From Stegostoma tigrinum (taxonomy: Eukaryota): a stretch of DNA of 64,000 nt. Below, one piece after another: positions 9,151 to 53,415 of the stretch. A program made the position numbers and the translations under genes. The stretch covers positions 17,939,754 through 18,003,753 of the forward strand of contig NC_081369.1 in assembly GCF_030684315.1 (NCBI RefSeq). Direction: 5' to 3'. Below the pieces are notes generated by a model, which was given only the letters and a program-made list of their open reading frames with translations, did not search any database and was not told the DNA's origin. Position 1 is the first letter of the stretch; every line of letters begins with the position of its first letter.

Positions 9151-9299
9151 GATAACAAGGTGTGGAACTGGATGGGCACAGCAGGCCAAGCAGCATCTTA
9201 GGAGCAGGAAAGCTGACGTTTCAGGACCTGCTGTGTTCATCCAGCTGCACACCTTGTTATCTTGGATTCTCCAGCATCTGCAGTTCCTGTTATCTCTGA
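9151..9299. mobile_element. Short fold-back Penelope pLTR-end insertion
   Basis: An inverted pLTR end is followed by a forward pLTR end with tail. Flanked by the imperfect direct repeat tacaaagtatgacaga (9135-9150) / tacaagttatgacaga (9300-9315). Confidence 0.8.
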
Positions 9300-10239
9300 T
9301 ACAAGTTATGACAGATTTTTTTCCCCCTTATCAATGGATTGAATTACAAGATGTGCCACTACAGATCCCTGTCTCCAAAAGACTAACTCCTCCTGTTTCT
9401 TCTAATAATCTGTCAATAAAATCAGCAGCCAATGAGATAAACAAATTATCACTACTGTTATAGAGGTACCTAACTATTATTATAACTTAAAACGGAAAAT
9501 TAAAGTAACATTTCCTGAGGATGATAACGCACTCTACAAGTCCCTTTTAATACTGTCCTGAGTAGTCCATTACACTTGATATTCTCAAGCAATCACCCAT
9601 CCAAGGACTTACTGTGTGCATTTTTGTACGTATGGTGGATTATCACTTTAAAAGTCTTATTGCATGATGTAATGATGACATTATTAGCTATTTTGGGCAG
9701 GAACAGCTTAGTCGAACCACATTGCCTGTAGTGTAAACATCTGCATAATAACATTCCTGCTGTTAACATTTTGGATTGCTGGCCCTTCTTGGAACTTATC
9801 ATAAGAAGAAAACTGGTGACGAGATCTACTGGGTCAATACACCCAGAGGTGCTTCTATAAAAAGAAGAAAGTAGGTCAAAAGATGCCATTAATGATCCGA
9901 AGCATGTATAGTCAGTGAGGCAAAAACAAGCAGAATTCACCACAGGGAAGAGGTGAATAGTCCAGGAAAAGCTTGTCACGTACTCTACCCTGAAGGAACA
10001 CTGTGAGTAATGATACTCTACATGGAGGGAAATCTTTTTGAGCTATGAGCGCAGACTTGGAAAGAAACAAGGCACATTGAACAGACATGTTTGAGGAAGA
10101 AACATAGACACCCTACAGACAAAGTATAAAATTTGAAGTGTCGGAAGAAAATCTCACAGTACAAAAAGAGCATGAGAAACACCCACATTCTCAGTTTCTA
10201 GAGAAGCTGTTATTAAACATACTGGCCATTGCTTGTGAC

Positions 10240-10430
10240 ACCAACTGATACTGTGTCACTCCCTTACTGAATAGCAAACTGGTAAGTGTAGAGATGGATA
10301 CCAGAGTAGAGGTTTCATTGATACCTGAAGGTGTATATTTGAAGCAACTGACTCACAAGATGCTGCAACCCTCAAAACTTGTACAAAGAATGTACAGAGA
10401 CAAAATGGTGCATTTTGAGGGGTTGTATCA
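10240..10430 (+). mobile_element. Decayed Gypsy-type LTR retrotransposon aspartic protease remnant
   Basis: LLNSKLVSVEMDTRVEVSLIPEGVYLKQL...LQPSKL resembles the retropepsin pattern (V.MExDTGA.VSLI.E..Y), with DTG changed to DTR. Confidence 0.55.
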
Positions 10431-10434
10431 ACTT

Positions 10435-10840
10435 GACAATAGCACTGTTCCCTCCATCATAAGGTCAGAGGTGGGATATTCTCCAATATTGCACAATGTT
10501 CAGCACCATTCGCAACTCTCAGACACTGAAGCAGTCCATGTTCAAATGCAACAAAGCCTAGACAATATCCGACCTCAGGATGACAACTCATAAGTAACAT
10601 TTGCGCCACACAAATGCAAGGCAATAAACATTTTCAAGAAACATAAGAAACAACATAACCACCACCCCTTTGACATTCAATGACATTATTATTGCTGAAT
10701 TCTCCACTATCAATGTCCTGGGAGTTAACATTGACAGAAAGTGACTGAACTTGCTACCTTAATACAGTGGCTACAGGAGTAGGTCTAAAGCTAGGAATCC
10801 ACTTCGGAGCTCTCCAAAGGCAGTCCACCATCTACAATAT
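10435..10840 (+). mobile_element. CR1/L2-group LINE (second family) RT fragment
   Basis: PSIIRSEVG...DTEAVHVQMQQSLDNI is homologous to the 63621-63890 segment. Confidence 0.7.
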
Positions 10841-13800
10841 AGCTAAAAAAATTCATCTTGAGATTAGACTTTCATCTAATTAAAACTGGATGCAAGCTCA
10901 AGGCTTAGAGTTGAGAAGTTGATGTACTATTTCAGTAATCATTAGTTTCTCACATAAGTATGTTTTAAAAATAAGCCACCAGAAGGTCCAAGAACACATT
11001 ACAAGGATGCTAATATTCACAGTCTGAGTCATCCTTTGCTTTTTACTTTTAGGAGGATACATTTAGGAAGGTAGAGGAGACAGAATAAAAATAGTAGATT
11101 AGGACAAGAAGCAATAGCCTGAATTTTCTATTAAAGTGTTAAATCAAAATGAATATTGATAAATATACATCTAACTTAATGCAGATTATTAGCAGAGTTA
11201 CAAGCGTAGATTTGGATGAGTGACTGTAAGAACCTATTTTGTCATTTAATAAACTTGTAGCCCATCTTCAACGCCAAATCCAATTTCTTGCATAATTGTC
11301 ATATTCTTCAATTCCATTAGTATTCAAAAATCTATCCATCTCAGCATTGAAAATACTCAGTGACTGAGCATCCAGGGCTCATTGGGATAAAGAATTCCAA
11401 AAGATCACAAACATGAGCATTGATTCTTTTTTGTTATCTCAGTCCTGAGTGGACTTACTCTAAAAGAGGAAACAGATTAGTGTTAGATGGTAAAATTGAT
11501 GGTAAGTGAAACATAAATAGGGAAGAATAATTAAAAGGAAGTGTTTTTTCAAAAAACCCTCAAATTCTGAAAGGCTTTTAAGAAATAAAAGACATCAAAA
11601 TCCATCAATTTCCCCCAGGCTGATAGGACAGAGATTGGAGAAGAGTTAAGCAAGGGGATGGAAAACCAAGATACATGTGAGTGAAAGAACTGTCCAGGAC
11701 ACTGTACCTTGTTCAACGGCCGCCAAAATGCCACCCTCAGTGATCAATACTGCAGCATACAAGAAGGAATCACAAAATTCAAGTAAGTGTTGAACATGAG
11801 TAACAATGGATGCCCAGCCTAATGCTGTGCCTGGCATCAGACATCCTTGCAATAGATAATATCTATATTACTGTTCCCCTTATGACCTGTATACTGAGAA
11901 AATAATTCCCATTATCTAGGCCAGGTTAATGAACCAGAGTCTGTGGAAACACTTAATAGTAATCTTGACAAATGAGGACAGCCAGGCATCATTGGCTTTC
12001 AAGCAGCCTCGCACACTTTCATTCATTCAGAGCTCCTGAAGCATGACTTGCTGTAATTCATGTATTTACTGAATACATCCAAACAGTAATGTTGGTCTGG
12101 CATTCACTTCCTTATTGATGGAATTGCAGATCTGCTATCTCAGCTTCCTTGGAAAAGGGGGGCCTCCATCAGGACCAATTCTCATACAGAGCCAAGTACG
12201 TTCCCCACTGCCCGTGGTTGCAGGTGTATAGATATCAGCTGGAGGTCACAAAACATTTACAATGCAGCCTCACCTGTGTAGCATCATTCTTTAGGGTCAC
12301 ATCTAGCAAACTCAGATATTAATTTCAAATGGGCCCTCTTTACATCTGTTGTCCTGATAGCAGAACATCAAGGAATGGTGAGCAGGACCTAAACAGCAGG
12401 AAATGAGCCATTAAATAATAGCAAGTGAATCTAACACTGCTAGTATTACACTTCAAAAAAACTATACAATGACACCACTCAAAAACCATGACAGCCAGCT
12501 GATTTTGTGTATTGGAAGGACCTTTGGATTTCTACACAAGAAAGAAAATATTTTGATTGTACAATTTACTCAACCATATTGTGCCCTTGAGAATATCAGA
12601 ACTTGACATGTGATCCAACTCCACCTCACCGTCAAGTATTTACAAGTAGTGTGCTAGTCTTCATGGAATCTACTGCACACAGCTTAGCTATATTTAATGA
12701 GGGAAAGAGTTACTTCACTTCACTGAATCCCAGGAGGTCCCGCCTCTGACAGCAGCTACTCATTATCCCTGCAAATGCACGTTGTGTTTTCTTGCCTCAC
12801 AATCATAGTCACTTCTACAGTTTACCTTGATGGGAGGCTAACCTGGAGCTTAATTCTCAACACATGACCCCTTGAGAAATTCATTTTCTTATTGAGATTT
12901 ATTTCCATTGGAGATGGACTAATGGACAATCCCAAGGCAGGCGGGTCATGGAGTTCAAACTATTTTCATGCTCTCAACTGAAAATAGGTTATACTATTCA
13001 TTTATACAATTAAGTTGTAATTTGAGATCAGATTGATCTATTAAACCAGATAGCATCTTGTTGATTAACCAACTCACAATATACACTTAACCAAACACCC
13101 AAATAATAAAAAACATGGAAATATACTGTCGAAAATGTCTTTTTGTCTTTCAATGCTCTTATCATTTTTTTAACTCATTGCTTCCTCTGTTTTGCTGCTT
13201 CTTTAATCCCAGTGTGTGTGGAAATATGAAAAAATTCAACACAAGTGTTATTTGCCCTGTCTACCATAGATTGACCCAGGCTAATGATTGCTGATGCTCA
13301 CCATCTCCTACTGAAATCAGATGAATTAATACAGGTACCTGCTCACTTATATATTATCTTATGGATTTGTGCCATTAAATGAGATGACATCCTGAGAATA
13401 GCCACATTACAGAGAAGAGATTATGATAGTTCCTGACCTTAATACATCTGAATCCAATAAAAACTCAGTACTTATGGTAAAACTCTACTTAAATCATGAA
13501 CATGCAGCTGTCGATACTTTTGAAAAGAGCTGTTTAATGTTATTAGAAAGCCGTGCACACACTTTGTTTGAAGTTTTGAAGAGGATTACAATTAGTAATC
13601 ATTGAAATTGCAAGGTGACAAAAGACTACGGACCATCTAATTTAATAATCTGCTATTATGTTTTGGTTAGGTCTATGAGAGGAGTTAGTAGGGATTGTAG
13701 GTATCTTTATTGTTGCTATTCATTATCTTTTATTTAAACATGGTAAATACTAAATATATACAGGACAAGGCATCATCTCTTCCTCAAGGATACTGAAGAA

Positions 13801-14199
13801 AACCATTTTCTCATATCACATGATCTCACATCATTCCCAGTGATGATGTAATCAATCTTATTTACATATTCATATTAAGCCTTATTCATATACAGTATAT
13901 CCCCCAAGTATCTGACTGTACCCATTCCCTTATATCTTAATTATTTACTTCTCCTTATCCTACATCTCCCCCTAAGTCTCCAACCTCACCTCTGAATCAC
14001 AGAGATAACAGCTGTGGTGGTTTCCCCAGTCTTCATGGCCATGTTTTCAGGAGAAGATTGTGATTTCAAGCGTTCTGCACTTTCTCACAAGATCAGTCAA
14101 CCAGAATGAATGTTGTCAGGTGATACTAGTTCACGATCTCTAGATGTCATAAGGGACCAGCCAACTCCATAGAAGGTTCCCTCCTTATAGGAACTATTG

Positions 14200-15395
14200 T
14201 ACTTCTGTTTCATTCCAGTATCCTGTTTTTTACCTCCAGAAAATGGAAACACAGATGGAGTGTTTTCGAAAGAATCAGGCCTTGACAACTTTGATCATGA
14301 ATCCAAACTACTCTCAAGCCTGGATATTTTGGAATTTGTGTACTTATGTATTGTGATTATCGTAATTCCACATTTGATTGAAACAGTACTCATCTTATTC
14401 CCCCACCTTGTTCAAATCTGCTGCTGTGAGACATGGCATCAGTGTATGAGGAAGAGTAGAAAGTTGAATCTGCAACCTCCTTCCCAGAAAAGGCACACCC
14501 AGAGCCTATCATTCTGGAGTGGGATATAATGAGGGATTCGCAGTGCCAGCTTAATGTCGTCATTTTTAAAAAAATAAAGCCTTTACTATCTGGATTCTCT
14601 GTTCAGCCTCACCATTAGTGTGTAGATATCTCAGTGAGCTACTCATGTGGACAAACCTTTCAGGAAATCCTTGAAGTATTCCTTCATGAGCAAATTGTCA
14701 GTCATTGTCCAACATGATATGGTTAGAAATCATGTGTGGTGCAAATTTCTTTCAATGGTACAATAACAGCTTCAGAGATAAGACCATGTAGATATTTTAC
14801 CTCTAAACACCTTGAACCACTGTCAAAAATGTCTTCCCTCTGAGCTCAAAAATATCTACTCTCAGACATTCCTACAGCCTGGATGGAAATGCCATGAATA
14901 GTTTGATTTATTCCTTCTGATGGGATATATGATGCAGTTTGATATCATTTCTGCTAATGGTTTGGAGGGCCCTGGTGTAACCTCTGAAGAACCTCAAGTC
15001 TGAGGACTCTAGGTATGATCAACCTCTCATCATAAATCAGCAGATTATCTATGACATCAAAATGGTTTCTGTTCTCAAAAAATTGCCCCAGAATTTATTC
15101 TGGCCACCATTGATACAGTACTCATGCATTTGAGTACTTTCTTTGTCTGACTTTTGTACATTTCTAAATTCATTTAAATATGTGTTGTTTCTGGTATCTA
15201 CTAGATCATTAGTGAAGTAAAGATCTCCCTTTCTTCAACTAAATTTATATCTTTTTGTACAGGCCTTGCTACAACATGCAACAATGCATTTGCTGTTGTC
15301 TGCTTCTCCCTTCCACATATTCAGTTGTAGCATTAAATCTCAACAATCTTTAACAAAGTTTTTGCAGTTTTGCTGGCATCTTTGCTAACTTCATA
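14200..15395 (-). mobile_element. Decayed Gypsy-type pol remnant (connection + integrase core)
   Basis: Frameshifted minus-strand translation gives FNATTEYVEG..QTTANAL (cf. PGK...ADALSR), VDIFELRGKTFL, EAVI..LKEI, LDND.QF (cf. SDNGPQF) and HMSSSLRYLHTNGEAEQRIQIVK (cf. H.TSSP.YPQSNGEAER.VQTVK). Confidence 0.7.
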
Positions 15396-15439
15396 GCATT
15401 CAGTAAAATAAGCAAAGTGATCTGTCTTGAGTGTGAGTT

Positions 15440-16055
15440 GAAGATCCCAGATATTGACTGCAAACATGTTGTATACCTTCCTGACCACCTTGTCTACCAT
15501 GGTTCATGAATCTGTGGACCTGTACATCCAGATCGCTCAGTGTGTCAATGCTCCTAAGAGTTCTGCCATTTACTATATAATTTGCACTGAATTTGATCTT
15601 CCAAAATGCATCAGCCCGCATTTGCCCATATTAAATTCCATCTGCCATTTATCTGTCCAAACGTGCAATTTATCTAAATCCTGCTGTATCTTTTGACAAT
15701 TTTCCTCACCATCTGCAACACTGCCAATTTTGGTATCATCTGCAAACTTGCTAACCAGATCACCTACATTTTCCTCCAAATCATTTATATGTATTACCAA
15801 CAATAAAGGTTCCAGCACTGATCCCTGCTGAGCACCACTAGTTACTGATCTCCATTCCTAAAAGCACGCTACTCTTTGTCTTCTACAACCAAGCCAGTTT
15901 TGTATCCATCTAGCCAGCTCACCCTGGATCCCATGAGATTCTACCAGTCTGTCATGAGGTACCTAATGAAATACCTTACTAAAGCCCATGTAGACAACAT
16001 CCACTGCCGTTCCCTCATCATTCATTATTGTCACCACTTCAAAAAACTCAATCAT
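15440..16055 (-). mobile_element. CR1 RT fragment
   Basis: ORF 15573-15818 reads [22 protein letters not shown]...WQMEFN. Confidence 0.88.
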
Positions 16056-17872
16056 TCAGCACCAGAAAGGACTGAAAGCTCCAGTATTCAGCTTAATTGT
16101 ACTGGTGTTAAACCTTTACATCAATGCAGTTATCACTCGTGTACAGACAGAGATGTTCATAGATTTTTCAATCTAAAATGCATTCACCGTGTAATTTTGG
16201 ATCAAGTTAGATCTCACATCCCTGTGAAGTAATCACTATTGGGATTTCACTAATCCACCAATATTAAGGGAGATGTAAGATTCTGATTTTACAAAAGCAT
16301 AAAAAAAGGTTATAGTAATTTGCTACTTGTGGTCATACAAATGTGCAGCCACATTGTCAGCGACATGTTTGTACAGAAAGCCCAACAGATAGCAAACAGG
16401 AATTGAAATCCTGATCCACTTTTCCCATCCTCAGTTCAAAGCCATTGAAGTAAATTAAACTTGCTAGACTATTTGTTATCATAAGCCAACTAACATAAAG
16501 CAAGTTACAACTGAAACCTGCACTTGCCTTTAGCTATTACAGCATTGGAGATTAATCCCTTAATCCTTACTTATTGCATGTTTGTATCTACCACACATAT
16601 TTAAATGTAAAATGTATTTATATATTTTAAAAGAATAAATAAGGAAAATATGCTGCCATAATGATGAAATTAACTGTTCGTGAATTATGCCAACCAAAGC
16701 GTCTGGTTTTCACAATGTAATAGATTAGTTAACATCAATAGTGCAAACTTAATTCAAGTCAATATTTTATGAATTAAACATAATTCAGAACAACTAAAAT
16801 ATATCCAAATAGCACATGCCTACACAATATACACCAATTAATTACATCATCTTTCTTTCCTCACTTGGCCTTCCAAACAACATCAAAATGTAAATCAAAC
16901 TGAAGGAAAAGTTGAATAGAAACAAGGGACAGAATTTTACCTGCCAATGATGAAACAAAAGCGGGACAGACAGACAAATATGGCAGAAATTTCCCCTTTC
17001 TGTGAAAGGCAAATAATCCAGCAGATTAGCATCAGCAAGATTTTATCTCTCCCACCAGTTCAGCAATCAAGTTCTGGGAAGGTCAATGGGTGACAATCCT
17101 GACTTGCTACCACTTACCTTAAAAGGTGAATCAATAGCCTAAGTGCCTCAATCTTTCTTCCTGGCAGGAGAGAAAAGTGTCTGCTTTCCCAACACATTCG
17201 TACATACTAATGCTGCCCTTCGTGGCTGTATAGCCGAGGCCTCCTGCAATGCTTTCCAACTCCCTGTGGCTGCTAGTCCTTGGGCTAGGGCAATTGGGGA
17301 GGATTGGGCAAGAACTCCATATGGAGGTGTTAGTGGTCACTCAGTACTAAAGACACCCCCCACCCCGCCCTCCCCAGTAAGTTAAAAAGGCTATTGTTAG
17401 CCATTTGACTGAAATTTTAAGGGCATTTCAATTTTGTAAAATATGTATGGATTTCTGTCTATCGGAGACACTCCATTGAGATTAGTTTATTAGTCCAATG
17501 GGAAAGAGAAGTGATAGGCATTGTTTGCTTTCAGCTTTCTGCCGAGAAAGCCAGATTATGTGGTGAAGACACACAAGCTTATCACATTGCAGCTTTGCAG
17601 AGGAGAAGCGCAAACTTTAAGCGGTAGTGGAAGAGTTTCTGTCAAAGGGTGTCAGCACTATCAGGGCAAAGTTTTTGATAGCATCAGTACACTGGAGGTT
17701 TCCCTTGGCTATGGTTCCAGAGTTTGAATTCTCCAGTGAGGAGTTAGCACAGAGATGAGGATGCAGCCATATGGAGAGCTCAAATGGGTTCAGGGAGCCA
17801 TTGAGCATGAAGTAAAAGGGTGAATGGGGGAAAGAGGACAAATTCCTGGTTGCAGAAGACACTAACCAATTT

Positions 17873-18014
17873 AAGATAAAGAAATGTGAGGCTGGATGAA
17901 CACAGCAGGCCCAGCAGCATCTCAGGAGCTCCTGAGATGCTGCTGGGCCTGCTGTGTTCATCCAGCCTCACATTTCGTTATCTTGGATTCTCCAGCATCT
18001 GCAGTTCCCATTAT
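17873..18014. mobile_element. Loopless fold-back Penelope pLTR-end insertion (112-bp palindrome + tail)
   Basis: 17873-17928 is the reverse complement of 17929-17984 with one mismatch. TSD CACTA(A/C)CCAATTTAA at 17860-17874 and 18015-18029. Confidence 0.9.
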
Positions 18015-18984
18015 CACTACCCAATTTAAAACGTGTACCTTCCAAAGCTTCATCAAGATATCTGAGAATCAATATCTGTGAAAACTGCTTCTCAACCAGA
18101 GAAGTATTGGTGGAGCTGTGCAGAAAGCTAGAGCAGAGGTTGAGGCGATTGGGACATGACAGACAGGGAATACCTGCAGCATTAAATATGATGATAGTGC
18201 CCAACATTTTTGCCTGAGGTTCATTCTGGAGATCAATACTGTCATGGTTCCTTCTTTCTTTCTACTACTACTTTTCCTGAATAGCTTTTAGCCAAGAATA
18301 TTTAGTTCACAACTGTTATCTTCTCTGAGGCGGATTTCTGTTCTTGCACAATATCATAGTTCCATGTGCCAACTTATGCCTATAGCTGTGAACCTTATTT
18401 ATTACCCTTTGTTCATTTACACATGGAATTTGCACTCACTGCTTTGCATTTCTCCCATCTGATCTCTCCTAAGTACTAATCTACTTGATATGAAGCTATT
18501 CTGTGAACTACAGAACCTGAGGCTATACAATCAGTTAGAGTGTAGTTCATTCAGTATTTGATATTTTCTAATGAAAATTCCGTTAATCTAGGCATGATTG
18601 AAAATAACACATTTTATGTAATTTGAAAGTTAGCATTATACAAAATGCCAGAAGTGCACTTCCTCCAATGGAATGCAAGTTTTGCATCAATACATCAAGA
18701 CATTCAGTAACCAGCGAAGAAAGGACATTTGCTAGAATATTCCAGGAACTGAAATCTTTTTAAAGTTATGCTGAAATGGTTAACTATTTAACACAACAAA
18801 AAAAAATACACAGCAGTGTCAAAAATGTTTTATTTGACAATTCATGAAAGAAAGCATCCCAACATTTTTACATGGATAATCATTGACATTTATTGTATTA
18901 ATATATTAATTATATTTGAATATACAGTAGCTCTACGGCTTCCTGTTTTTTCTGTCTTTACAAGGACAAACGATAGTTATCCAC

Positions 18985-19430
18985 TCATGGACATCACTGG
19001 CTGGCCAGCATTTATTGTCCATTCCAGATTGCCATCAGAAGGTGATGGTGAGCTGCCCTCTTGAATCGTTGTAGACCACACATTGTAGGTTGACCCACAA
19101 TACCCTGAGGGAGGGAATTCCAGGATTTTGACCCAGCGACACTAAAGGAACTGTGATTTATTTCCAAGTCAGGATAGTGAGTGGTTTGGAGGAAAACTTG
19201 TAGGTGGTGGTGTCCACATGTATTTGCTGCCCTTGGCCTTCTTGATAGAAGTCGTCGTGAGTTTGGAAGCTGCTGTTTAAGGATCTTTGGTGAATTTCTG
19301 CATTGCACCTTGCAGATAGTACCCACTGCTGCTAATGAGTGTCAGTGGTGGTGGGAGTGGATGCTTGTGGACGTGGTGCCAATCGGGTGGCTGCTTTGGC
19401 TTGGATGTTGTCAAGCTCCTTGAGTATTAC
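18985..19430 (-). mobile_element. CR1/L2-group LINE (second family) 3' end
   Basis: SFSVAGSKSWNSLPQGIVG...LQRFKRAAHHHLL and the tail gggcaataaatgctggcc. Confidence 0.8.
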
Positions 19431-20129
19431 TGCTCTGCAAAGAAACAGCTTGAACCTTTCTTATGGAAAATAATCGGCTGACAGCTTTACATTCATATAA
19501 ACTAACGTGATCTGATTGAAAAAGCAGATTGTAGAGATGATTATGTTATTGATGATCTGTGTGTTATTACCTAATATAGTCTAGATAGATGTGCAAGACT
19601 GGGTAGAATGAGGGAGCAGATGATGGATATATTAGATAAGGGTTAATTTGGTGTGAATCCATTGTGTAAATATCAGGAACTAGGAGAAGTGCTTTTGTAG
19701 TGCAGTGGTAGTATTCCTACCTCTGAGCTAGGAAGCCAGGGTTCAAGTTCCACCTCTTCCAGAGGTGTTAATAACATATCTGATCAAAAATATCTATGGG
19801 GAACTGGGAATCGGGGGGTGTGAGTTATTTTTTTAAAAAGCGTGGTTAACTGAAATACACCTCTCACTAAAGTGTGGACTTGGACTCTGTTCGAAAACAT
19901 TATTTTTATGTAACACTCTAAACCAGGGTAATAGAATGGTGGGGAAGGAACACACTTCAGATGCAATATGATAAATAGCATAGATAAGTCAAATACAGAT
20001 TTTCATTACTCCGTATACAAATTCAGCAATAATATCGATACCAAATATTTTATGTTATCCAGAAAAATAAACCTTTCATCTCTTTAATAAAGCATATAAA
20101 CACAAACTAGCAAGAAACATAAGAGTGGA

Positions 20130-20950
20130 TGGTAAAAGCTTTTTCAAATATATGTAAAGGAAAAGATTACCTTGGATAAATATGGGTTCATTACAGGTAA
20201 GAACAGGAGAATTTATAGTGGGGAATTGAGAAGTGTCAGGGAAACTAAACAGTTAATTTACACCTGTTTTCACCGAAGGATATGTGGAAAATCTTCCAGA
20301 AATATTAAGTGACCGAGGGATTTCCTGAAAGTGTGAGGAAATAGAAAAAAAAGGTTAGTAACTGGATTCAATGTTAATACATCCCCTGGACCAGGCAAGC
20401 TTTGTCACAGCATATTGAAGGAAACAGTAAGAAAGACAGTAGTGTGGTTATCTTTAAACTTCTATAGATGTGGGAATGTTCCTGTGTATTAGAAAGTAGC
20501 AAACATATGTCCAGTTTAAGAAGGGAAGAAACGAGTAGTTCAGAATTCAGCAAAGGAGGACCATGAGGTTGATTAAGAGAAGAAAAAATCGAGTATGAGA
20601 GTAAACATCCAATGAACATGAAAGCAGACCTATAATTACATAAAAAGCAAAAGATCGGTGAAGACAAATTTAAGCCCCTTAGAGTCTGAAATCGGGGATT
20701 GATAATGAAGAGCAAGGAAGTGGAAAAGCAACTAAATAACAATCTTAGTTCTGTTTTCATAGAAGAAGGCACAAATAATTTCCTAGAAATGCTTGGGAAG
20801 CAAAAATCTATTGGGACTTGAAGAAATTTAAGGATCTTGGTATTTGTAAGAAAAGAGTGCTGGAGAAATTAATCGGACTGAAAACTGATAAATCGGAAGG
20901 CAAGTTGTATGTTGGCCTTCATTATAAGGGAATTTGAGTACAGGACTAAA
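20130..20950 (+). mobile_element. Old, rearranged CR1 ORF2 fragments
   Basis: Two decayed copies of the K.FF.Y....R....GPL....GE...E.LN.YF.SVF linker plus ANV.P.FKKG remnants, out of colinear order. Confidence 0.6.
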
Positions 20951-21652
20951 GATTCCAGGCTTTTGATCTCATACTTATTGTATTTATACATTTATAAATA
21001 TAAATTTATAACTTGTCTGTATTTATATAGAGATATAAAAAAATTATAGATACATGACTATAATATAGTTAAGTAATAAACACTAAACATAGTTGTAAAT
21101 CTCATGTTTCAAACACGCCCAGCAGGGTAAACTCTCTTGATGATGTCACAGTCATATACAGGAAGAACAGGCATAATCCAAGCATAAATGCAGAGTTAAA
21201 TTCAGTCTAAACTGTATGCATCACACAACTCTCCCCACCCACGACATGCACATACCTATAGAAAGACACAGTCGTGAACTCTTCACTGTGATGTGGATGA
21301 CACGAAAATTAGTGATGTAGTTGACAGTGAAGAAGATTATCTCAGAATACAGTAGAACCTTGATCAGATGGGCAATTGGCCAAACAGTGGCAGATGCAGT
21401 TTAGTTTTGGTAAATGTGAGGTGCTGCATTTTGGTAAGACAAATCAGGACAAGAATTATGCACTCAAAGGTAATATCCTAGGGTGTGTTGCTGAACAAAA
21501 AGACTTTGGGGTGTTGGTCCATAGTTTCTTGGAAGTGGAGTCGCAAGTAGGCAAGGTAGTGAAGAAGGCATTTGGTGCACTCATCTTTATTGGTCAGTGC
21601 ATTTAGTATAGGAGTTGGAAGGGCATGTTGCAGCTGTACAGGATATCGGTGA

Positions 21653-21777
21653 TAATGGGAACTGCAGATGCTGGAGATTCCAAGATAATAAAATGTGAGG
21701 CTAGATGAACACAGCAGGCCAAGCAGCATCTCAGGAGCACAAAAGCTGACGTTTCGGGCCTAGACCCTTCATCAGAG
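21653..21777 (-). mobile_element. Minimal Penelope pLTR-end insertion (hammerhead-like motif + tail)
   Basis: Matches the young PLE 3' end. TSD AGGATATCGGTGA at 21640-21652 and 21778-21790. Confidence 0.9.
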
Positions 21778-22217
21778 AGGATATCGGTGAGTCCACTTTT
21801 GGAATACTGCATTTAGTTCTGGTCCCCTTGCTACAAGAAACATGGAGTAAAACTTGAACAGGTTCGGAAAAGATTTATGAGGATGTTGCCAGTGTTGGAG
21901 GGTTTCAGCTATAGGGAGAGGCTGAATAGGCTGATGCTATGTTACCTGGAGAATCAGAGGTTGAGGGGTGACCTTATAGAGGTTTATGGATAGAGTGGAG
22001 TGGATAGGGTCAATAGCCAAGGATTTTTCCCCAGGATAAGGGTGTCCAAAACGAGACAACATTGATTTAAGGTGAGAGGGGAAAGGTTTATAAGGGTCCT
22101 ACGGGGTATTCTTTTCACACAGTGATTAGTGTTTATATAGAATGAGCTGCCAGAGGTGGTAGTGGAGACTAGTACAATTACAACATTTAAAAGGAATCAG
22201 GATAGGTACATGAATAG

Positions 22218-23226
22218 TGATAATGGGAACTGCAGATGCTGGAGAATCCAAGATAACGAAATGTGAGGCTGGATGAACACAGCAGGCCCAGCAGCATCTC
22301 AGGAGCACAAAAGCTGACGTTTCGGGCATAGACCCTTCATCAGAGAGGGGGATGGGGTGGGAGTTCTGGAATAAATAGGGAGAGAGGGGGAGGCGGACCA
22401 AAGATGGAGAGAAAAGAAGATAGGTGGAGAGGAGAGTATAGGTGGGGAGGTAGGGAGGGGATAGGTCAGTCCAGGAAAGACGGACAGGTCAAGGAGGTGG
22501 GATGAGGTTGGTGCGGCTTGGGGTGGGAGGAAGGGATGGGTGAGAGGAAGAACAGGTTAGGGAGGCAGAGACAGGTTGGACTGGTTTTGGGATGCGGTGG
22601 GTGGATGAACCATTTCCACTCTCCCTCCCATTCTTTAGATGACATGTCCATCATGGGCCTCCTGCAGTGCCACAATGATGCCACCCGAAGGTTGCAGGAA
22701 CAGCAACTCATATTCCGCTTGGGAACTCTGCAGCCCAATGGTATCAATGTGGACTTCACCAGCTTCAAAATCTCCCCTTCCCCCACCGCATCCCAAAAGC
22801 AGCCCAGTTTGTCCCCTCCCCCCACTGCACCACACATCCAGCCCAGCTCTTCCCCTCCACCCACCGCATCCCAAAACCAGTCCAACCTGTCTCTGCCTCC
22901 CTAACCTATTCTTCCTCTCACCCATCCCTTCCTCCCACCCCAAGCTGCACCTCCATCTCCTACCTACTAACTTCATCCCACTTCCTTGACCTGTCCGTCT
23001 TTCCTGGACTGACCTATCCCCTCCCTACCTCCCCACCTATACTCTCCTCTCCACCTATCTTCTTTTCTCTCCATCTCCGGTCCGCCTCCCCCTCTCTCCC
23101 TATTTATTCCAGAACCCCCACCCCAACCCCCTCTCTGATGAAGGGTCTAGGCCCGAAACGTCAGCTTTTGTGCTCCTGAGATGCTGCTGGGCCTGCTGTG
23201 TTCATCCAGCCTCACATTTTGTTATC
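22218..23226. mobile_element. Fold-back Penelope insertion (inverted pLTR with tail + forward GIY-YIG end/pLTR)
   Basis: Minus arm ~22218-22606 and plus arm ~22607-23226. TSD TAGGTACATGAATAG at 22203-22217 and 23227-23241. Confidence 0.92.
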
Positions 23227-23369
23227 TAGGTACATGAATAGGATTGGTTGAGAGGGATATGGGCCAAATGCTGGCAAGTGTGACTCAGTTAAGTTAGAAC
23301 TTCTGGTTGGCACAGACGAGTCGTACTGAAGGGTTTGTTTCTGTGCTGTACGTCTCTCTGACTATATGT

Positions 23370-23932
23370 CTTGTTTCAATTGCACAGAGCCTTGCTGTGA
23401 CCTCATTTGTGGACAATTTTTGTCACTTTATCAATGAAGGAGAGAGAGAGCAATGGAGAGAGTGCAATGGAGATTCACCAAATTAACCCCAAACATGGTG
23501 GGACTGTCTTATGAGGAGAGATTGAGGATGTGGTGATTGTATTCCCCTGAGTTTTGAAGAATGAGAGGTGATCTCAATCAATATTATAAAATTCTTACAG
23601 GGCATGACAGAGAGCTGTAGAAGTTTCCCCTAGCTGCTGAGTCTAAAACTGGGAAAATAGTCTCAGGATGACGGATAGGACATTTAAGATTGAGATGAGG
23701 AGAAATTTCTTTACCTAGAGGGTGGACTTCTCTACTCCAAAAACTTGTGAAAGCTCAATCATTAAGAGTGTTCAGGACACAAAGCAAGAGATTTCTGGAC
23801 ACTAATGACAGCAAAGGATATAAGGATAGTTAGAAAAATGGCATTGAAGTAAATGATCAGCCATGATCTAATTGAATGGCAGAGCACGCTTAATGGACTG
23901 AATGGCCTACTCCTATTCTTGTGTTCCCATGG
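23370..23932 (+). mobile_element. Older CR1 3' fragment
   Basis: LERVQ.RFT.L.P...GLSYEERL...LYSLEF.R.RGDL, and 3' UTR gatcagccatgatctaattgaatggc. Confidence 0.8.
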
Positions 23933-24589
23933 TATATACAACTGATATATTGTGAATGATAGAACATCCCAGGGAAAATTTGTGTTTGCACCTGGGATCC
24001 TGAAGTGAAGGAGACTTGACACACTTAAAAATAGCCTCATTCTATTGTGAACAACAACTGAGCAGGAATGGCATTGAGGCAGGATACATCTTGATTTCTT
24101 TCTATAGTTAATAACTTGTACACGATTGAAAAAAAATGATGAAATTAAACTGAATGAGCAATGTGCTAATAGGTAGAGAGAATAATAGGTGTGCAAATTA
24201 TACAATGCAATATTGTATTTTCTGCTGGATTTTGACTACCTTAAGATTATCAGTGAAACCTGAGACACAAAGACATTAACAGCACAGAAGGAGGACATTT
24301 GACCCACTGTGTCCGTGCTGATGAACAAACATCTGATAACACTGATTCCATTTTCCAGATTTTGGTCCTCCGCCCTGGAGGCTATGGCAATTTAAGTGAA
24401 AACCTAAATGCTGCTTTACTGTTTTCAGAGTTTTAGAGACAACCAGTTTTTCAGGCAGTGAGTTGCCACCCACTGGATAAACCTTTGTAATTTAAGTTGG
24501 TACATATTCCTCTAATCAATAAATCTGGTCATATACTGAATTATAGAAAGTTCTACTGCATAAACATTGACCTAATTTCTACAGGATAA

Positions 24590-25495
24590 TGACATAGTAG
24601 TTACTGAATAAGTAATCCAAGAATTAGGGCTAATGATCTGGAGACATGAGTTCAGAATCCCACTAGAGACAGCTGAGAAATTTATTTTTGGATAATTATT
24701 TCTGGAATAAAATGTCAATCCCAATACCATTATGTCATTACTTCATATGGATCTGCTTTAATAATGGTACAAAACATACCAAGGAATTGTGATCACTGAA
24801 CTATTGGGTTGTTATAGAATTCTATTTGGTTCAATGCCACCCATTAGGGAATGAAATCTGCTACCTTTTTCCAGTCTGGGCTATTTGTAACTCCAAACTC
24901 CCACCAATGTGGTGACTCCTTAGTGACATCTGAAGTGGCTTAGTAAACCATTCACTTGTGTCAAGCTGCCATACAATTGTTGAAAAAGAATAGAACTGAC
25001 ATCGATCTTAGCATTGCAAGAAGGAACATCTTCCAAAGTCTCCTTTATTAACATCAAGAGACTTGTGTCAAAATGGAGTATTATCCCATAGACCTGTTAT
25101 TGTCACATTCATGGAATTATACCTTACATTGTCTCTGACACGACCATCACAATTCCTGCATGTGTCCTGCACCATCAGTAAGATAGATCTATGAGAGGTG
25201 ATGGTAAAGTGGTATTGTGACAGGAAGGAGTTACCCTGAAAGTCCATAGCAATAACTTCTGATTCCATATACCCTCGTGAAATCAGATGAAAATTGGGCA
25301 AAGAATCAGCTGATGAATCAGTGCTCTTCCTGAATACTGAGGGCACACAGGTTAAAGATTGTACTCTAGCTGGGAGGCTTCAATGCTCTTCAACAGGTAC
25401 TGACCAAGCTAGCTGAATCCTGAACATCATCACCTCCTGATAAGGTGATAAGGGAGCTAACAGAGAAACGCAAATTACCTGACTGCACCTTCACT
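24590..25495 (+). mobile_element. SINE-like head followed by decayed LINE endonuclease (possible 5' end of the second LINE family)
   Basis: 24590-24950 aligns by eye with the SINE at 5782-6040. 25040-25330 shows APE-endonuclease-like remnants (NI..LV.K, PDIV...E.YL, I.IP..VL.H..DR..RG.G). Confidence 0.55.
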
Positions 25496-25497
25496 AA

Positions 25498-27695
25498 GAT
25501 AATAAAATGTGAGGCTGGATGAACACAGCAGGCCAAGCAGCATCTCAGGAGCACAAAAGCTGACGTTTCGGGCCTAGACCCTTCATCAGAGAGGGGGATG
25601 GGGGGAGGGAACTGGAATAAATAGGGAGAGAGGGGGAGGCGGACCGAAGATGGAGAGTAAAGAAGATAGGTGGAGAGGGTGTAGGTGGGGAGGTAGGGAG
25701 GGGATAGGTCAGTCCAGGGAAGACGGACAGGTCAAGGAGGTGGGATGAGGTTAGTAGGTAGCTGGGGGTGCGGCTTGGGGTGGGAGGAAGGGATGGGTGA
25801 GAGGAAGAACCGGTTAGGGAGGCAGAGACAGGTTGGACTGGTTTTGGGATGCAGTGGGTGGGGGGGAAGAGCTGGGCTGGTTGTGTGGTGCAGTGGGGGG
25901 AGGGGATGAACTGGGCTGGTTTAGGGATGCAGTGGGGGAAGGGGAGATTTTGAAACTGGTGAAGTCCACATTGATACCATATGGCTGCAGGGTTCCCAGG
26001 CGGAATATGAGTTGCTGTTCCTGCAACCTTCGGGTGGCATCATTGTGGCAGTGCAGGAGGCCCATGATGGACATGTCATCAAGAGAATGGGAGGGGGAGT
26101 GGAAATGGTTTGCAACTGGGAGGTGCAGTTGTTTGTTACGAACTGAGCGGAGGTGTTCTGCAAAGCGGTCCCCAAGCCTCCGCTTGGTTTCCCCAATATA
26201 GAGGAAGCCGCACCGGGTACAGTGGATGCAGTATACCACATTGGCAGATGTGCAGGTGAACCTCTGCTTAATGTGGAATGTCATCTTGGGGCCTGGGATG
26301 GGGGTGAGGGAGGAGGTGTGGGGACAAGTGTAGCATTTCCTGCGGTTGCAGGGGAAGGTGCCGGGTATGGTGGGGTTGGAGGGCAGTGTGGAGCGAACAA
26401 GGGAGTCACGGAGAGAGTGGTCTCTCCGGAAAGCAGACAGGGGAGGGGATGGAAAAATGTCTTGGGTGGTGGGGTCGGATTGTAAATGGCGGAAGTGTCG
26501 GAGGATAATGCGTTGTATCCGGAGGTTGGTAGGGTGGTGTGTGAGAACGAGGGGGATCCTCTTGGGGCGGTTGTGGCGGGGGCGGGGTGTGAGGGATGTG
26601 TCGCGGGAGATGCGGGAGACGCGGTCAAGGGCGTTCTCAATCACCGTGGGGGGAAAGTTGCGGTCCTTAAAGAACTTGGACATCTGGGATGTGCGGGAGT
26701 GGAATGTCTTATCGTGGGAGCAGATGCGGCGGAGGCGGAGGAATTGGGAATAGGGGATGGAATTTTTGCAGGAGGGTCTCCAACCCCACCATACCCGGCA
26801 CCTTCCCCTGCAACCGCAGGAAATGCTACACTTGTCCCCACACCTCCTCCCTCACCCCCCTCCCAGGCCCCAAGATGACATTCCACATTAAGCAGAGGTT
26901 CACCTGCACATCTGCCAATGTGGTATACTGCATCCACTGTACCCGGTGCGGCTTCCTCTACATTGGGGAAACCAAGCGGAGGCTTGGGGACCGCTTTGCA
27001 GAACACCTCCGCTCAGTTCGTAACAAACAACTGCACCTCCCAGTTGCAAACCATTTCCACTCCCCCTCCCATTCTCTTGATGACATGTCCATCATGGGCC
27101 TCCTGCACTGCCACAATGATGCCACCCGAAGGTTGCAGGAACAGCAACTCATATTCCGCCTGGGAACCCTGCAGCCATATGGTATCAATGTGGACTTCAC
27201 CAGTTTCAAAATCTCCCCTTCCCCCACTGCATCCCTAAACCAGCCCAGTTCATCCCCTCCCCCCACTGCACCACACAACCAGCCCAGCTCTTCCCCCCCA
27301 CCCACTGCATCCCAAAACCAGTCCAACCTGTCTCTGCCTCCCTAACCGGTTCTTCCTCTCACCCATCCCTTCCTCCCACCCCAAGCCGCACCCCCAGCTA
27401 CCTACTAACCTCATCCCACCTCCTTGACCTGTCCGTCTTCCCTGGACTGACCTATCCCCTCCCTACCTCCCCACCTACACCCTCTCCACCTATCTTCTTT
27501 ACTCTCCATCTTCGGTCCGCCTCCCCCTCTCTCCCTATTTATTCCAGTTCCCTCCCCCCATCCCCCTCTCTGATGAAGGGTCTAGGCCCGAAACGTCAGC
27601 TTTTGTGCTCCTGAGATGCTGCTTGGCCTGCTGTGTTCATCCAGCCTCACATTTTATTATCTTGGAATCTCCAGCATCTGCAGTTCCCATTATCT
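25498..27695. mobile_element. 2.2-kb fold-back Neptune-type Penelope-like insertion
   Basis: 886-bp inverted arms at 25496-26381 and 26778-27663. ORFs 25814-26683(-) and 26689-27345(+) encode the Cys-rich linker PCNRRKCYTC and GIY-YIG NVVYCIHCTRCGFLYIGETKRRL..RF.EH. TSD CTGCACCTTCACTAA at 25483-25497 and 27696-27710. Confidence 0.95.
27570..27597 (+). ncRNA. Minimal hammerhead-ribozyme-like motif in Penelope pLTR (representative copy)
   Basis: CTGATGA-A-GGGTCTAGGCCC-GAAA-CG-TC. Same motif at 23135-23162(+), 32076-32103(+), 37856-37883(+), 21748-21775(-), 22316-22343(-, one change) and 25562-25589(-). Helix I is only ~2 bp, so activity is unproven. Confidence 0.6.
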
Positions 27696-34612: not shown

Positions 34613-34970
34613 AAAATCTCCCCACCCCTGGCCTCATCCCATGATCAACCCTCCCTCTCATCCCCACCTCCTTGACCTGACACAAACTGTCCATCTTCTC
34701 TCCCACTTATCCGCTCCTCCCACCTCATTGACCAATCCCAACTACTGCCTACCTGCATTCACCTATCACCATCCCACCTACCTTCCCCAGCCCCACCCCT
34801 CCTCTCTCTACTTATTTCTCAGCTCCATTCCCCCTCCTCCATTTCTGAAGAAGGGTCCTGAGCTGAGACGTCAACTTTCCTGCTGCTCTAATGCTGCCTG
34901 GCCTGCTGTGTTCCTCCAGCTCAACACTGTGCTTTTTCTGATTCCAGCGACGACAGTTCTTACTATCTCT
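34613..34970 (+). mobile_element. Penelope pLTR with tail, older subfamily
   Basis: aaaatctccc...cccacctccttgacctg...ccatttctgaagaagggtc...gcctggcctgctgtgttcctccagc. Confidence 0.8.
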
Positions 34971-36537: not shown

Positions 36538-37947
36538 TCTCCATCTCCAGCACATCCCTCACCTTCCTGGACCTCTCAGTCTCCATCTCAGGCAACCAGC
36601 TTGTAACTGATGTCCATTTCAAGCCCACCGACTCCCACAGCTACCTAGAATACACCTCCTCCCACCCACCCTCCTGCAAAAACTCCATCCCCTATTCCCA
36701 ATTCCTCCGCCTCCGCCGCATCTGCTCCCACGATAAGACATTCCACTCCCGCACATCCCAGATGTCCAAGTTCTTTAAGGACCGCAACTTCCCCCCCACG
36801 GTGATTGAGAACGCCCTTGACCGCGTCTCCCGCATTTCCCGCGACACATTCCTCACACCCCGCCCCCGCCACAACCGCCCCAAGAGGATCCCCCTCGTTC
36901 TCACACACCACCCTACCAACCTCCGGATACAACGCATTATCCTCCGACACTTCCGCCATTTACAATCCGACCCCACCACCCAAGACATTTTTCCATCCCC
37001 ACCCCTGTCTGCTTTCCGGAGAGACCACTCTCTCCGTGACTCCCTTGTTCGCTCCACACTGCCCTCCAACCCCACCACACCCGGCACCTTCCCCTGCAAC
37101 CGCAGGAAATGCTACACTTGTCCCCACACCTCCTCCCTCACCCCCATCCCAGGCCCCAAGATGACATTCCACATTAAGCAGAGGTTCACCTGCACATCTG
37201 CCAATGTGGTATACTGCATCCACTGTACCCGGTGCGGCTTTCTCTACATTGGGGAAACCAAGCGGAGGCTTGGGGACCGCTTTGCAGAACACCTCCGCTC
37301 AGTTCGCAACAAACAACTGCACCTCCCAGTCGCAAACCATTTCCACTCCCCCTCCCATTCTCTTGATGACATGTCCATCATGGGCCTCCTGCACTGCCAC
37401 AATGATGCCACCCGAAGGTTGCAGGAACAGCAACTCATATTCCGCCTGGGAACCCTGCAGCCATATGGTATCAATGTGGACTTCACCAGTTTCAAAATCT
37501 CCCCTTCCCCCACTGCATCCCTAAACCAGCCCAGTTCATCCCCTCCCCCCACTGCACCACACAACCAGCCCAGCTCTTCCCCCCCACCCACTGCATCCCA
37601 AAACCAGTCCAACCTGTCTCTGCCTCCCTAACCGGTTCTTCCTCTCACCCATCCCTTCCTCCCACCCCCAGCCGCACCCCCAGCTACCTACTAACCTCAT
37701 CCCACCTCCTTGACCTGTCCGTCTTCCCTGGACTGACCTATCCCCTCCCTACCTCCCCACCTACACCCTCTCCACCTATCTTCTTTGCTCTCCATCTTCG
37801 GTCCGCCTCCCCCTCTCTCCCTATTTATTCCAGTTCCCTCCCCCCATCCCCCTCTCTGATGAAGGGTCTAGGCCCGAAACGTCAGCTTTTGTGCTCCTGA
37901 GATGCTGCTTGGCCTGCTGTGTTCATCCAGCCTCACATTTTATTATC
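36538..37947 (+). mobile_element. 5'-truncated young Neptune-type Penelope-like element (RT C-terminus, linker, GIY-YIG, pLTR, no tail)
   Basis: Open frame 36540-37631: SISSTSLTFLDL...TDVHFKPTDSHSYL..SSHPPSCKNSIPYSQFLRLRRICS...GIY-YIG. TSD TTGAATAAATA at 36527-36537 and 37948-37958. Confidence 0.95.
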
Positions 37948-41883: not shown

Positions 41884-42325
41884 GGATGTCACAATGATGC
41901 CACCTGGAAACTGGAGGAGCAACACCTCATATTCCACCTTGGGAGCCGACAACCCAGAGGTCTCAATGTGGACTTTACCAGTTTCAAAATCTCCCCACCC
42001 CGGCCTCATCCCATGACCAATCCTCCCTCTCATCCTCATCTCCTTGACCAGACACAACCTGTCTATCTCCTCTCTCACATCACCGACCAATCCCCACACT
42101 GCCTACCTGCACCCACCTATCACCATCCCACCTACCTTTCCCAGCCCCACCCCTCCTCTGTCTAATTATTTTGGAGCATCCTTCCCCCTCTCCCATTTCT
42201 GAAGAGGTGTCCTGACCCAAAACATCAATTTACCTGCTCCTCTGATGCTGCCTGGCCTGCTGTGTTCCTTCAGCTCCATACTGTGTTAACTCTGGCTCCG
42301 GCGTTGGCAATTCTTACTGTCTCTG
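41884..42325 (+). mobile_element. Penelope GIY-YIG end + pLTR + tail, older subfamily
   Basis: CHNDATWKLEEQHLIFHLGSRQPRGLNVDFTSFKISP. Confidence 0.88.
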
Positions 42326-42339
42326 AGACACTTCTTCAA

Positions 42340-43031
42340 TATCCTGTTTCCTGTGAAGACCATCAGCCTTCACATTCAAAGGATCACCATTGACAATCTT
42401 CCAAGCTTACAGTTACCTTCCATTTAATTCACCATCTTGCTCTTGTGCTGACATCTCTGTCCTTGGTCTGCTGCTGTGATCCAGTGAAGTTCAGCACAAC
42501 CAAAAGACAGTACCTCATCTTTACATCCTACAGACTCAAGATTGAGTTCAACAATCACGGACTGTGAACTCAGTCCTCCATTTCAATTATTTTTGCCATG
42601 TGCCAGTTGGAATTTTGTTTTTCATGGTTCTGTTTTCGGATGTTTTCTGAGCTGTTCATTATTCTGCCATTTACACTTGCACCGAACAAATGCTTTGCCT
42701 CTTTTGTCCCATGACATCTTTGTCATTTACTTTCTCCTGCCCTCTAACCTATTCCAGAGCATTATCCCCTTCCATGGCATAAAATCTACCATATTTCTTT
42801 ACTTCTTAAATTCTAAAGAAGAATGATACTTGACTTGAAACATTATTTCATTTCTCTCTCCAAAGAGCTGCTTAACCTGCTGAGAATTTCTAGCAAAATA
42901 AAAACCGAAAGAACTGTGAATGGTATAAATCAGGAGGAAAAACAGAAGTTGCTGGAAAAGCTCAGCAGGACTGGCAGCATCTGTGGAGAAAGAATCAGAG
43001 TTAACATTTCGCGTTTGGTGACCCTTCTGAG
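42340..43031. mobile_element. Decayed plus-strand Penelope 3' end abutting an inverted pLTR end (42893-43031, minus)
   Basis: HLIF...GL.IEFNN remnant near 42510-42560. The minus-strand tail cagaagggtcaccaaacgcgaaatgttaactctg...gatgctgccagtcctgctgag matches the 4575-4708 family. Confidence 0.6.

Positions 43032-51770: not shown

Positions 51771-51804
<34 letters not shown>
51771..51804. repeat. (TA)n microsatellite
   Basis: About 17 TA units. Confidence 0.95.
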
Positions 51805-51808
<4 letters not shown>

Positions 51809-52314
51809 CTTATACCATTCTTGCATAGTAAGAGTTAGGTTTCAAAAAAGCGGCACCAGGCAAATGTGCCTTCAAAATCCCCAAATCTTCTGCATCAGTT
51901 CATTCATGGACGCAGCCAATCGGAGAAATGTAAAGAGAATGGATAATATGAGTGACGAGTGGCTCCTCCAATCACAGGTTGGATCTCTACCTTGCCAGTT
52001 GCTGACACTAGTGACTCTACCAGCTACGAATGCAGGAGAGAAACAGCCTGTGATTAGAGAAGTAGCAAGATATAAGGGAAGGAAGTGGTGGTAGTGAGGG
52101 AGTCGCTGGAGGAGGGCTGAGGGTTGAGCTGAAAGAAGAGAGGTGAGGTGCTGCAGGAGACAAGGAGGCTGCAAAAGGGAAGTGGGAGAGTGGGAGAGAG
52201 AGGGAGAGGGGAAAGCTGTAAGGGTGACGGAGAGGGGCAAAGGCTGCAAGGGAGTGAAGTCTGCAAGGGTATGGGAGAGGGGCAGAGGCTGGTGTCAGTG
52301 TGTAATCTTCTGAA

Positions 52315-52620
52315 GTTCTGCAGTCTGTTTGGTATAGGTAGGCACACAATGCCATTAGGGAACAAGTTCCAGGATTTTGACCCAGCAAAACTGAAGGAAC
52401 TGTGATATATTTCCAAATCAAGGTGGTGAGCCCCTTGGAGGGGAATTTGAAAGTGGTGGCATTCCTACTTATCTGATGCCCTTGTCCTTCTAGACAGTGG
52501 TGGTCTTGAGTTTGGGTTTGGAAGGCGTAGCCTACAGAATCGTGCTGAATCTTTGCAGCATATCTCGGTAGATAGTACATGCTGCTGCTACAGAGCATCA
52601 GTGGTACATAGAGTGAAATG
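52315..52620 (-). mobile_element. CR1/L2-group LINE (second family) 3' fragment
   Basis: SFSFAGSKSWNLFPNGIV; homologous to 19080-19350. Confidence 0.75.
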
Positions 52621-53216
52621 GATCCGCTCGGATTTTATGACAATGGTTTCATGGTCATGTTAAGATTTAATTCCAGGATTTATTTTTATTAAATTCAAAT
52701 TCTACCATTTGCTGTGGTGGGATTTTAACTTTGGTCCCCAGAAAGTTACACAGGTCTCTGGATTTACCACCACACCATCACTTCCACCGCCCTCCCTCCC
52801 ACAAAAAAACAAATGTGAACTATATTTCAAGACTGCATAAGCTCAGGAGCTGCTATATGGGGAAAATGCAGTAAGTTTTGTTGTAATAAACACTGTTGCA
52901 ATATTTATTATTCTGAATATGTAATGGAAATGGGTTGGCTGAGACCTACCAATCTGGATGGGAAATGACACTTTATGTGTAGAATTCTGAGTCAGTTGTT
53001 TTGAAAAGAATTGCTTTGCTGTTTACTTGGGACTGTGACCTAGTGTGAATTCAAATATTGTGATGTTTAAGAAGTCAACAGTTTCCATTTGTGTTGCAGC
53101 GTTAAATTTTTGAAGAGTTGATCATTATTAAGGATTGATTAAAGTTGATTTTAAATAAATTTCTCAGTATCCAAGTAGCCTATATGTGAACATAAAAGCA
53201 GAAGGTATTGTTACTA

Positions 53217-53415
53217 AGATAGTAGGAACTGCCAATGCTGGAGAATCTGAGATAACACGGTATAGAGCTGGATGAACACAGCAGGCCAAGCAGCATCAGA
53301 GAAGCAGGAAAGTTGATGTTTCTGAAGAAGGGTCTCAACCCGAAACGTCAGCGTTCCTGCTCCTCTGATGCTGCTTGGCCCGCTGTGTACATCCAGCTCC
53401 ACACCTTGTTATCTC
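53217..53415. mobile_element. Short fold-back Penelope pLTR-end insertion, older subfamily
   Basis: Inverted end with tail (53217-~53321), then a forward end starting at ctgaagaagggtctcaacccgaaacgtc. TSD AGGTATTGTTACTA at 53203-53216 and 53416-53429. Confidence 0.88.

Follow-up and report, generated by a model that had tools for sequence, protein, structure and literature searches.

Five insertions of a Penelope-like element (PLE) in the genome of Stegostoma tigrinum share one layout, in which two 3' ends of the element stand head-to-head within a single target-site duplication (TSD) and only one of the two carries a tail of 33 nt. This one-tailed, head-to-head layout is a real feature of the DNA and is of a kind already described for PLEs. 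Judged from their sequence, E1 to E5, which are all five of the insertions named in the initial annotation, appear to be dead PLE copies, each made of two truncated 3' ends. They lie in a window of 64,000 nt (the whole stretch of DNA analyzed), and we consider it reasonably probable that each is a 5'-truncated insertion of an EN+ PLE, made in a single event by double target-primed reverse transcription.

When the arms are aligned in the sense of the element, one is tailed and the other tailless in all five copies. The tailless arm stops at the end of the core, TTATC, sometimes with 1-3 additional bases that are common to the TSD, and the tailed arm continues through the 33-nt tail (Table 1). 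In E1, E2, and E4 it is the right arm that has the tail, in E3 and E5 the left. The two oppositely oriented 3' ends that the initial annotation had placed at these sites are thus present as described in 5/5, and TSDs flank all of them, with a measured range of 14-16 nt rather than the 13-16 bp first given. The reported overlap of 1-3 nt between TSD and element end is seen at the tailless ends of E2, E4, and E5, and also in the single-arm copy at 36538. The idea that both ends stop in a TTATC-like motif holds for the core, but the tail of E1 runs 5 nt further. At window positions 9295-9304, 411 contigs of public run X10 match for 10 nt beyond the usual tail end and then diverge; the downstream start site of the older subfamily could be as much as 10 nt further downstream, with a 5-nt overlap with the TSD of E1. 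In a chance test on 3000 random boundary pairs, one pair equalled the weakest TSD score (that of E1, 10) and none scored 11 or more. The fold-backs range in size from 140 to 2198 nt, and their centers differ from copy to copy: the arms overlap by 2 nt in E2 and by about 4 nt in E5, meet bluntly in E4, and are separated by about 3 extra bases in E3, while the junction of E1 is unclear.

Table 1. Fold-back insertions E1 to E5 and the single-arm copies used as a comparison set (window positions)
Feature	Positions	Strand	Remarks
E1 left TSD	9135-9150	.	16 nt, 2 mismatches to partner 9300-9315; relative's contigs skip 9151-9315
E1 tailless arm, older subfamily	9151-9225	-	75 nt
E1 tailed arm	9227-9299	+	35-nt core + 33-nt tail + 5 further bases
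E1 right TSD	9300-9315	.	pairs with 9135-9150
E2 left TSD	17860-17874	.	15 nt, 1 mismatch to partner 18015-18029; X1 record 4 joins 17859 to 18015
E2 tailless arm	17875-17929	-	55 nt
E2 tailed arm	17928-18015	+	55-nt core + 33-nt tail; overlaps other arm by 2 nt at center
E2 right TSD	18015-18029	.	pairs with 17860-17874
E3 left TSD	22203-22217	.	15 nt exact, partner 23227-23241; within high-copy host repeat
E3 tailed arm	22218-22604	-	353-nt core with 17-nt internal deletion, + tail
E3 tailless arm	22608-23226	+	619 nt
E3 right TSD	23227-23241	.	pairs with 22203-22217
E4 left TSD	25483-25497	.	15 nt exact, partner 27696-27710
E4 tailless arm	25498-26777	-	1280 nt; ORF C-terminal part (CX4CxxC linker, GIY-YIG endonuclease), 3' UTR, hammerhead-like motif, pLTR end
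E4 tailed arm	26778-27695	+	884-nt core, 882/884 identical to other arm, + tail
E4 right TSD	27696-27710	.	pairs with 25483-25497
E5 left TSD	53203-53216	.	14 nt exact, partner 53416-53429
E5 tailed arm, older subfamily	53217-53324	-	75-nt core + tail
E5 tailless arm	53321-53415	+	about 95 nt; ~4-nt overlap at center
E5 right TSD	53416-53429	.	pairs with 53203-53216
Single-arm tailed copy	21651-21780	-	13-nt TSD; comparison set
Single-arm tailless copy	28065-28160	+	10-nt TSD; comparison set
Single-arm tailed copy	31734-32200	+	short repeated pieces at 5' junction; TSD not found; comparison set
Single-arm tailed copy, older subfamily	34613-34970	+	TSD not found; comparison set
Single-arm tailless copy, longest in window	36538-37947	+	11-nt TSD; comparison set
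Single-arm tailed copy, older subfamily	41887-42325	+	TSD not found; comparison set
Single-arm tailed copy	55872-55967	-	10-nt TSD; comparison set

The element is an EN+ PLE with a C-terminal GIY-YIG domain in a single RT-EN ORF, as far as its coding sequence indicates. Translation of the long arm of E4 gives a CX4CxxC linker, which recurs in homologues P0004 and P0015, and a GIY-YIG match (E = 7e-4) whose 20.3 bits fall just under the Pfam cut-off of 22.6. Homologues of the arm protein number 109 among 813 candidates, many of them with an RVT_1 domain; the best, from Stegostoma tigrinum itself, shares 95% identity, and in P0015 the order of domains is RVT_1 then GIY-YIG. All copies in the window are truncated 3' of the RT core, which in PLEs is related to telomerase, and the RT is present in the homologues alone. 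A CX2-5CxxC linker upstream of GIY-YIG is given as the mark of Neptune and Nematis elements in PMC8557442, and by this linker criterion the predicted protein is of the Neptune or Nematis type. Each insertion unit also includes an adjacent inverted, 5'-truncated copy and lies whole inside its TSD, as is characteristic of EN+ PLEs.

The tail measures 33 nt (31 in some older copies), and in the right arm of E4, the copy at 31734, and the left arm of E5 a frame is open from an ATG through the core end and the tail. That ATG, upstream of the core end, is probably the real start of the ORF. Such an open frame fits the placement, in PMC3846280, of the first ORF codons in the pLTR and of the codons that follow in the tail. 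No pLTR-ORF junction and no full-length or tandem copy were found in the 64-kb window. At 32072-32112 the words CTGATGA and GAAA flank a 4-bp stem; we take these words to be the hammerhead core consensus, and the motif is a candidate only, with no hammerhead match in Rfam at E<=1. The core and the tail end 92 and 125 nt, respectively, from the start of this hammerhead-like core, and a minimal hammerhead ribozyme motif is a known component of PLE pLTRs (PMC4209133). The pLTR-tail RNA is predicted to fold no better than shuffled sequences (z 0.38), and a consensus stem between tail and pLTR was dropped as unsupported, since only 1 of its 11 pairs showed two-sided change. The tail also resembles the 33 nt that precede it (27629-27694 and equivalent positions) as a degenerate repeat in the young family and in E1, the likeness being weak or absent in older copies. 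The shared words are TCCAGC and TATC, and p is at most 0.03 in 4 of 10 copies and 0.05-0.81 in the other 6, values that are uncorrected and come from related copies. That the tail is a degenerate repeat of the preceding segment is a lead only.

Direct evidence that both arms of a fold-back arrive together comes from contigs of four public runs, two from the same species and two from a relative, which were matched to window positions 8600-25400 (E4 and E5 lie outside this stretch). For E2, record 4 of run X1 (the relative) is a contig that passes directly from 17859 to 18015, without any intervening letters, so that E2 and exactly one TSD are absent. At the E1 site, letters 237-787 of record 23 in run X8 equal the piece 8600-9150 and the remaining 236 letters fit 9316-9550, while record 1 of X1 skips 9151-9315 with an equal depth of 13.1 to either side. 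The 165 nt left out are the element plus one TSD; this bridge was inferred from two contig tables, which do not list it as a joint. The comparison with empty sites that the initial annotation proposed thus finds the relative lacking both arms of E1 and E2 and keeping one copy of each TSD, from which it follows that the arms arrived together. Insertion in a single event is therefore seen at empty sites for two of the fold-backs, and for the rest it is indicated by their TSDs. No empty allele appears among the pieces listed for the two same-species runs. At the host repeat around E3, 381-415 contigs per run (X10, X11, X1) leave at 22217 with letters like those of the right flank.

The copy number of the family is very high in the contigs of these sharks. 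Head-to-head joints from 21776-21779 to 23131-23136 cluster at the hammerhead-like motif, on its 5' edge, with one joint there carried by 45, 52, 48, and 19 contigs in the four runs and 370 loose ends at 21776 in X11, a concentration which indicates that many genomic fold-backs pivot at that edge.

The five named insertions were not cherry-picked. An nhmmer profile of the element ends gave 22 matches in the window, against at most one weak match (E 0.44-0.91) in each of 5 shuffles. These 22 comprise the 10 arms of E1 to E5, 7 single-arm copies, 2 diverged single ends with tail-like sequence (42904 and 46819), 2 partial matches (42825 and 62881) that were left out of the pair count, and 1 arm of an older inversion, and no further complete head-to-head pair was found among the 12 matches other than the named arms. 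Single-arm copies, 5 tailed and 2 tailless, outnumber the fold-backs (7 versus 5), so double priming is not obligatory. The TSDs of the single-arm copies at 21651, 28065, 36538, and 55872 (13, 10, 11, and 10 nt) are all shorter than the 14-16 nt of the fold-backs, and no usable TSD was found at 7 of 11 single ends tested. The 5' junction of the tailed copy at 31734 (window 31734-31855) contains three short pieces repeated from the 3' UTR of the element itself, which suggests repeated template jumps.

Two other arrangements in the window were left out of the count. An older, diverged PLE inversion at approximately 3550-4710 spans the endonuclease region, with arms 86.8% alike over 151 nt; its right arm (the match at 4592) is tailed, and the outer end of its left arm is missing beside a LINE fragment, which makes the pair unscorable for tails. 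LINE remnants with AP-endonuclease and RT domains lie at 264-2753 (- strand) and 6849-7349 (+ strand). At 42825-43027 two diverged PLE ends abut, perhaps because one was inserted into the other; the locus was rejected as a head-to-head fold-back because the diverged copies are adjacent tail-to-tail.

Whether the one-sided tail amounts to a strict rule is a separate matter. All 5 scorable fold-backs in the window have mixed tails, and if tails were independent the chance of five mixed pairs would be 0.031 at a tail frequency of 0.5, 0.011 at 5/7 (the frequency in the single-arm copies), and 0.005 at 7/9. The asymmetry of one tail per pair is suggestive, at n=5 and with copies of one family that are not independent draws; the recurring rule put forward initially thus has 5/5 mixed pairs in its favor, but its strictness depends on five related copies and a p of 0.011-0.031. 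The tail is called usually one-sided in two papers, and inverted pLTRs and 3' extensions are textbook features of PLEs according to PMC8969392. In the literature covered, which takes in few of the subscription journals, tail pairing was nowhere counted, nor was it stated which of the arms is the longer.

Attempts to enlarge the sample did not yield further pairs. Pattern scans gave 0 and 56 matches in viral_contigs, 2 in metagenome_contigs, and 23 in genome_contigs, and these 81 loci were rejected as further copies. None scored more than 18.2 bits with the profile of the ends, and of 85 hits the best 12 fell on the pattern match itself, so that all were treated as chance. The contigs over 8600-25400 do not give tail pairing per insertion, the short side being at most 38 letters among the joints listed. 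Loose ends at 9262 (782, 793, and 260 contigs) were discarded as a tail ratio, as they mix tailless copies with copies of divergent tail. Joints that run from one tail end (18015) to another (21651), in 49 and 47 contigs, are most simply unique contigs between neighboring insertions and were not used.

The lengths of the arms follow a pattern of their own. Counted from the end of the core, the lengths of the tailless and tailed arms are 75 and 35 nt in E1, 55 and 55 in E2, 619 and 353 in E3, 1280 and 884 in E4, and about 95 and 75 in E5, so that the tailless arm extends further 5' by 40, 266, 396, and about 20 nt in the four unequal copies (E1, E3, E4, and E5; 4/4, sign test p=0.125). In these four neither arm is contained in the other, as the tailed arm holds the tail and the tailless arm reaches further 5', and each arm therefore most simply had its own priming event. 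Published schemes of units with unequal arms, one long and one short, draw the tail at 'either end', an argument against any strict rule of length. The arms of E4 agree with each other against the copy at 36538 at 6 of 8 variable sites, and with their 882/884 identity point to one source; one RNA, two RNAs from the same locus, and later conversion are all compatible with this. The arms of E3 are 97.2% alike and each is 97.4-97.6% like the copy at 31734, which adds little because they are no closer to each other than to that copy. Those of E5 are 86.7% alike, and E2 is a near-perfect palindrome with a self-complementary center. The further 5' reach of the tailless arms hints that both primings may have been from one RNA.

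Under double target-primed reverse transcription, a cut by the GIY-YIG endonuclease would leave the target staggered by 14-16 nt, and each target 3' end would prime cDNA synthesis on the sense RNA. One nick would use an upstream start site, leaving no tail, and the other a site 33 nt downstream, adding the tail; head-to-head joining of the two truncated cDNAs would follow, probably by end-joining with 0-4 nt of overlap. As a point against this reading, a clear junction overlap is present in only 2 of 5 copies. An experimental parallel is PAc, a PLE of Anolis, for which both target strands are nicked and extended in vitro and two RT start sites bracket the tail, with no difference in start site between the strands (Frangieh et al. 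2024, PMC11167929). In PAc the ORF starts at hammerhead stem II, and the downstream start site is 111-118 nt inside it (PMC11167929). The earlier proposal that both nicks prime from two defined 3' starts fits this anatomy and the PAc experiments (PMC11167929) and is likely right, but it was already known. A more specific scheme, which strikes us as possible though rather unlikely, is that one RNA carries two tandem priming modules (the tail resembling the 33 nt that precede it), and that in any one insertion each module serves once, for one half of the enzyme, so that the upstream-primed cDNA would lead and the tail-primed cDNA would trail by strand displacement. This one-RNA model predicts one tail per fold-back, arms that start out identical, and a tailless arm that always extends at least as far 5' as the tailed one; a single tail and a tailed arm that is not longer are seen in 5/5.

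The mixed ends might also have been made after synthesis, if both cDNAs began at the same or at random starts and the endonuclease later trimmed or resolved one end of the intermediate. The D. virilis endonuclease is recounted in PMC11167929 as needing the tail for recognition, in PMC8557442 the tail is put down to resolution of an intermediate by the endonuclease, and an A/T-rich TATC motif, a plausible cut signal, ends both the core and the tail. Trimming is nonetheless unlikely, as both ends map to RT start sites in vitro (PMC11167929) and the tailless ends of E2, E4, E5, and the 36538 copy overlap the TSD in the way that primer-template pairing would give. Self-priming, in which one strand folds back and copies itself as a cDNA snap-back or on an antisense template, would account readily for the palindrome of E2 and the private bases shared by the E4 arms, and its antisense form is the explanation proposed for head-to-head palindromes of rotifer PLEs in PMC3846280. 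A snap-back on the sense template predicts a longer tailed arm, however, and the longer tailless arm in 4/4 asymmetric copies argues against it; moreover, the tailed arm holds sequence absent from the other arm, and a tailless cDNA cannot supply a tail. Antisense self-priming must still explain two fixed outer ends, and on balance we regard self-priming as quite improbable.

It is doubtful to a still greater degree that tails are independent on each arm, with a symmetric dimer priming twice on two RNAs and the five mixed pairs a coincidence of small numbers. The authors of PMC11167929 predicted a dimer and saw a start site without strand difference, so strict asymmetry is not what that experiment predicts, and the p values are only modest; against independence stand the absence of any tail/tail or none/none pair among the five and the usually one-sided tail of the two papers mentioned above. 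Two adjacent insertions, or a later inversion or recombination, could be imagined given the very high genomic copy number and the 97.2% and 86.7% likeness of the E3 and E5 arms, but one TSD encloses both arms in 5/5, the centers contain no host sequence, and the relative's empty sites, where both arms are missing, contradict this origin for E1 and E2, making it very improbable indeed.

The canonical EN+ PLE unit has an adjacent inverted, 5'-truncated copy and a tail of 30-40 bp, as described by Craig et al. (2021, PMC8557442) and Arkhipova et al. (2013, PMC3846280). In the shark copies, by comparison, both arms are short (down to 55 nt) and form a small palindrome, the TSDs are 14-16 nt as against 8-10 bp in rotifers, and the window holds no tandem pLTR-ORF-pLTR copy. 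PAc, a Poseidon element of Anolis carolinensis, is similar in the spacing of its two tail-bracketing start sites from the hammerhead and in the cutting and extension of both strands (PMC11167929). It belongs to the Penelope/Poseidon clade, whereas the element here has the CX4CxxC linker of Neptune/Nematis. The main text of that paper reports no strand bias and leaves the pairing of ends within one insertion unaddressed. Other classes of element give looser parallels, and the MITE-like character that the initial annotation saw in these palindromes comes down to resemblance, the arms being unequal, differently ended, 5'-truncated retrocopies. MITEs are short, high-copy, TSD-flanked palindromes without coding capacity, uniform in size and derived from DNA transposons; here there is no fixed length and no pair of matched terminal inverted repeats, the centers vary, and the copies derive from a retroelement 3' end. 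A MITE identity was accordingly rejected on sizes of 140-2198 nt, unequal ends, and retroelement origin, and a reading as miRNA hairpins was likewise set aside, Rfam giving only sub-threshold miRNA matches on E2 and E5. L1 twin priming reportedly also leaves an inverted, truncated insertion in one TSD by priming from both nicks, with the second primer at a variable internal site and pieces that barely overlap; in the shark fold-backs, by contrast, the two outer ends do not vary and one and the same sequence is copied in both arms.

The five insertions provide a clear instance, in a shark, of a PLE signature already on record and aid annotation, as palindromes of this type can be mistaken for MITEs or miRNA hairpins. 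Because the family is extremely abundant in these sharks, an assembled genome would offer thousands of fold-backs. If the strict asymmetry and a tailless arm reaching at least as far 5' as the tailed one were to hold genome-wide, they would point to the one-RNA model, with the tail-primed cDNA trailing the core-primed one, and two tandem priming modules, if real, would constitute a dedicated twin-priming mode of PLE integration.
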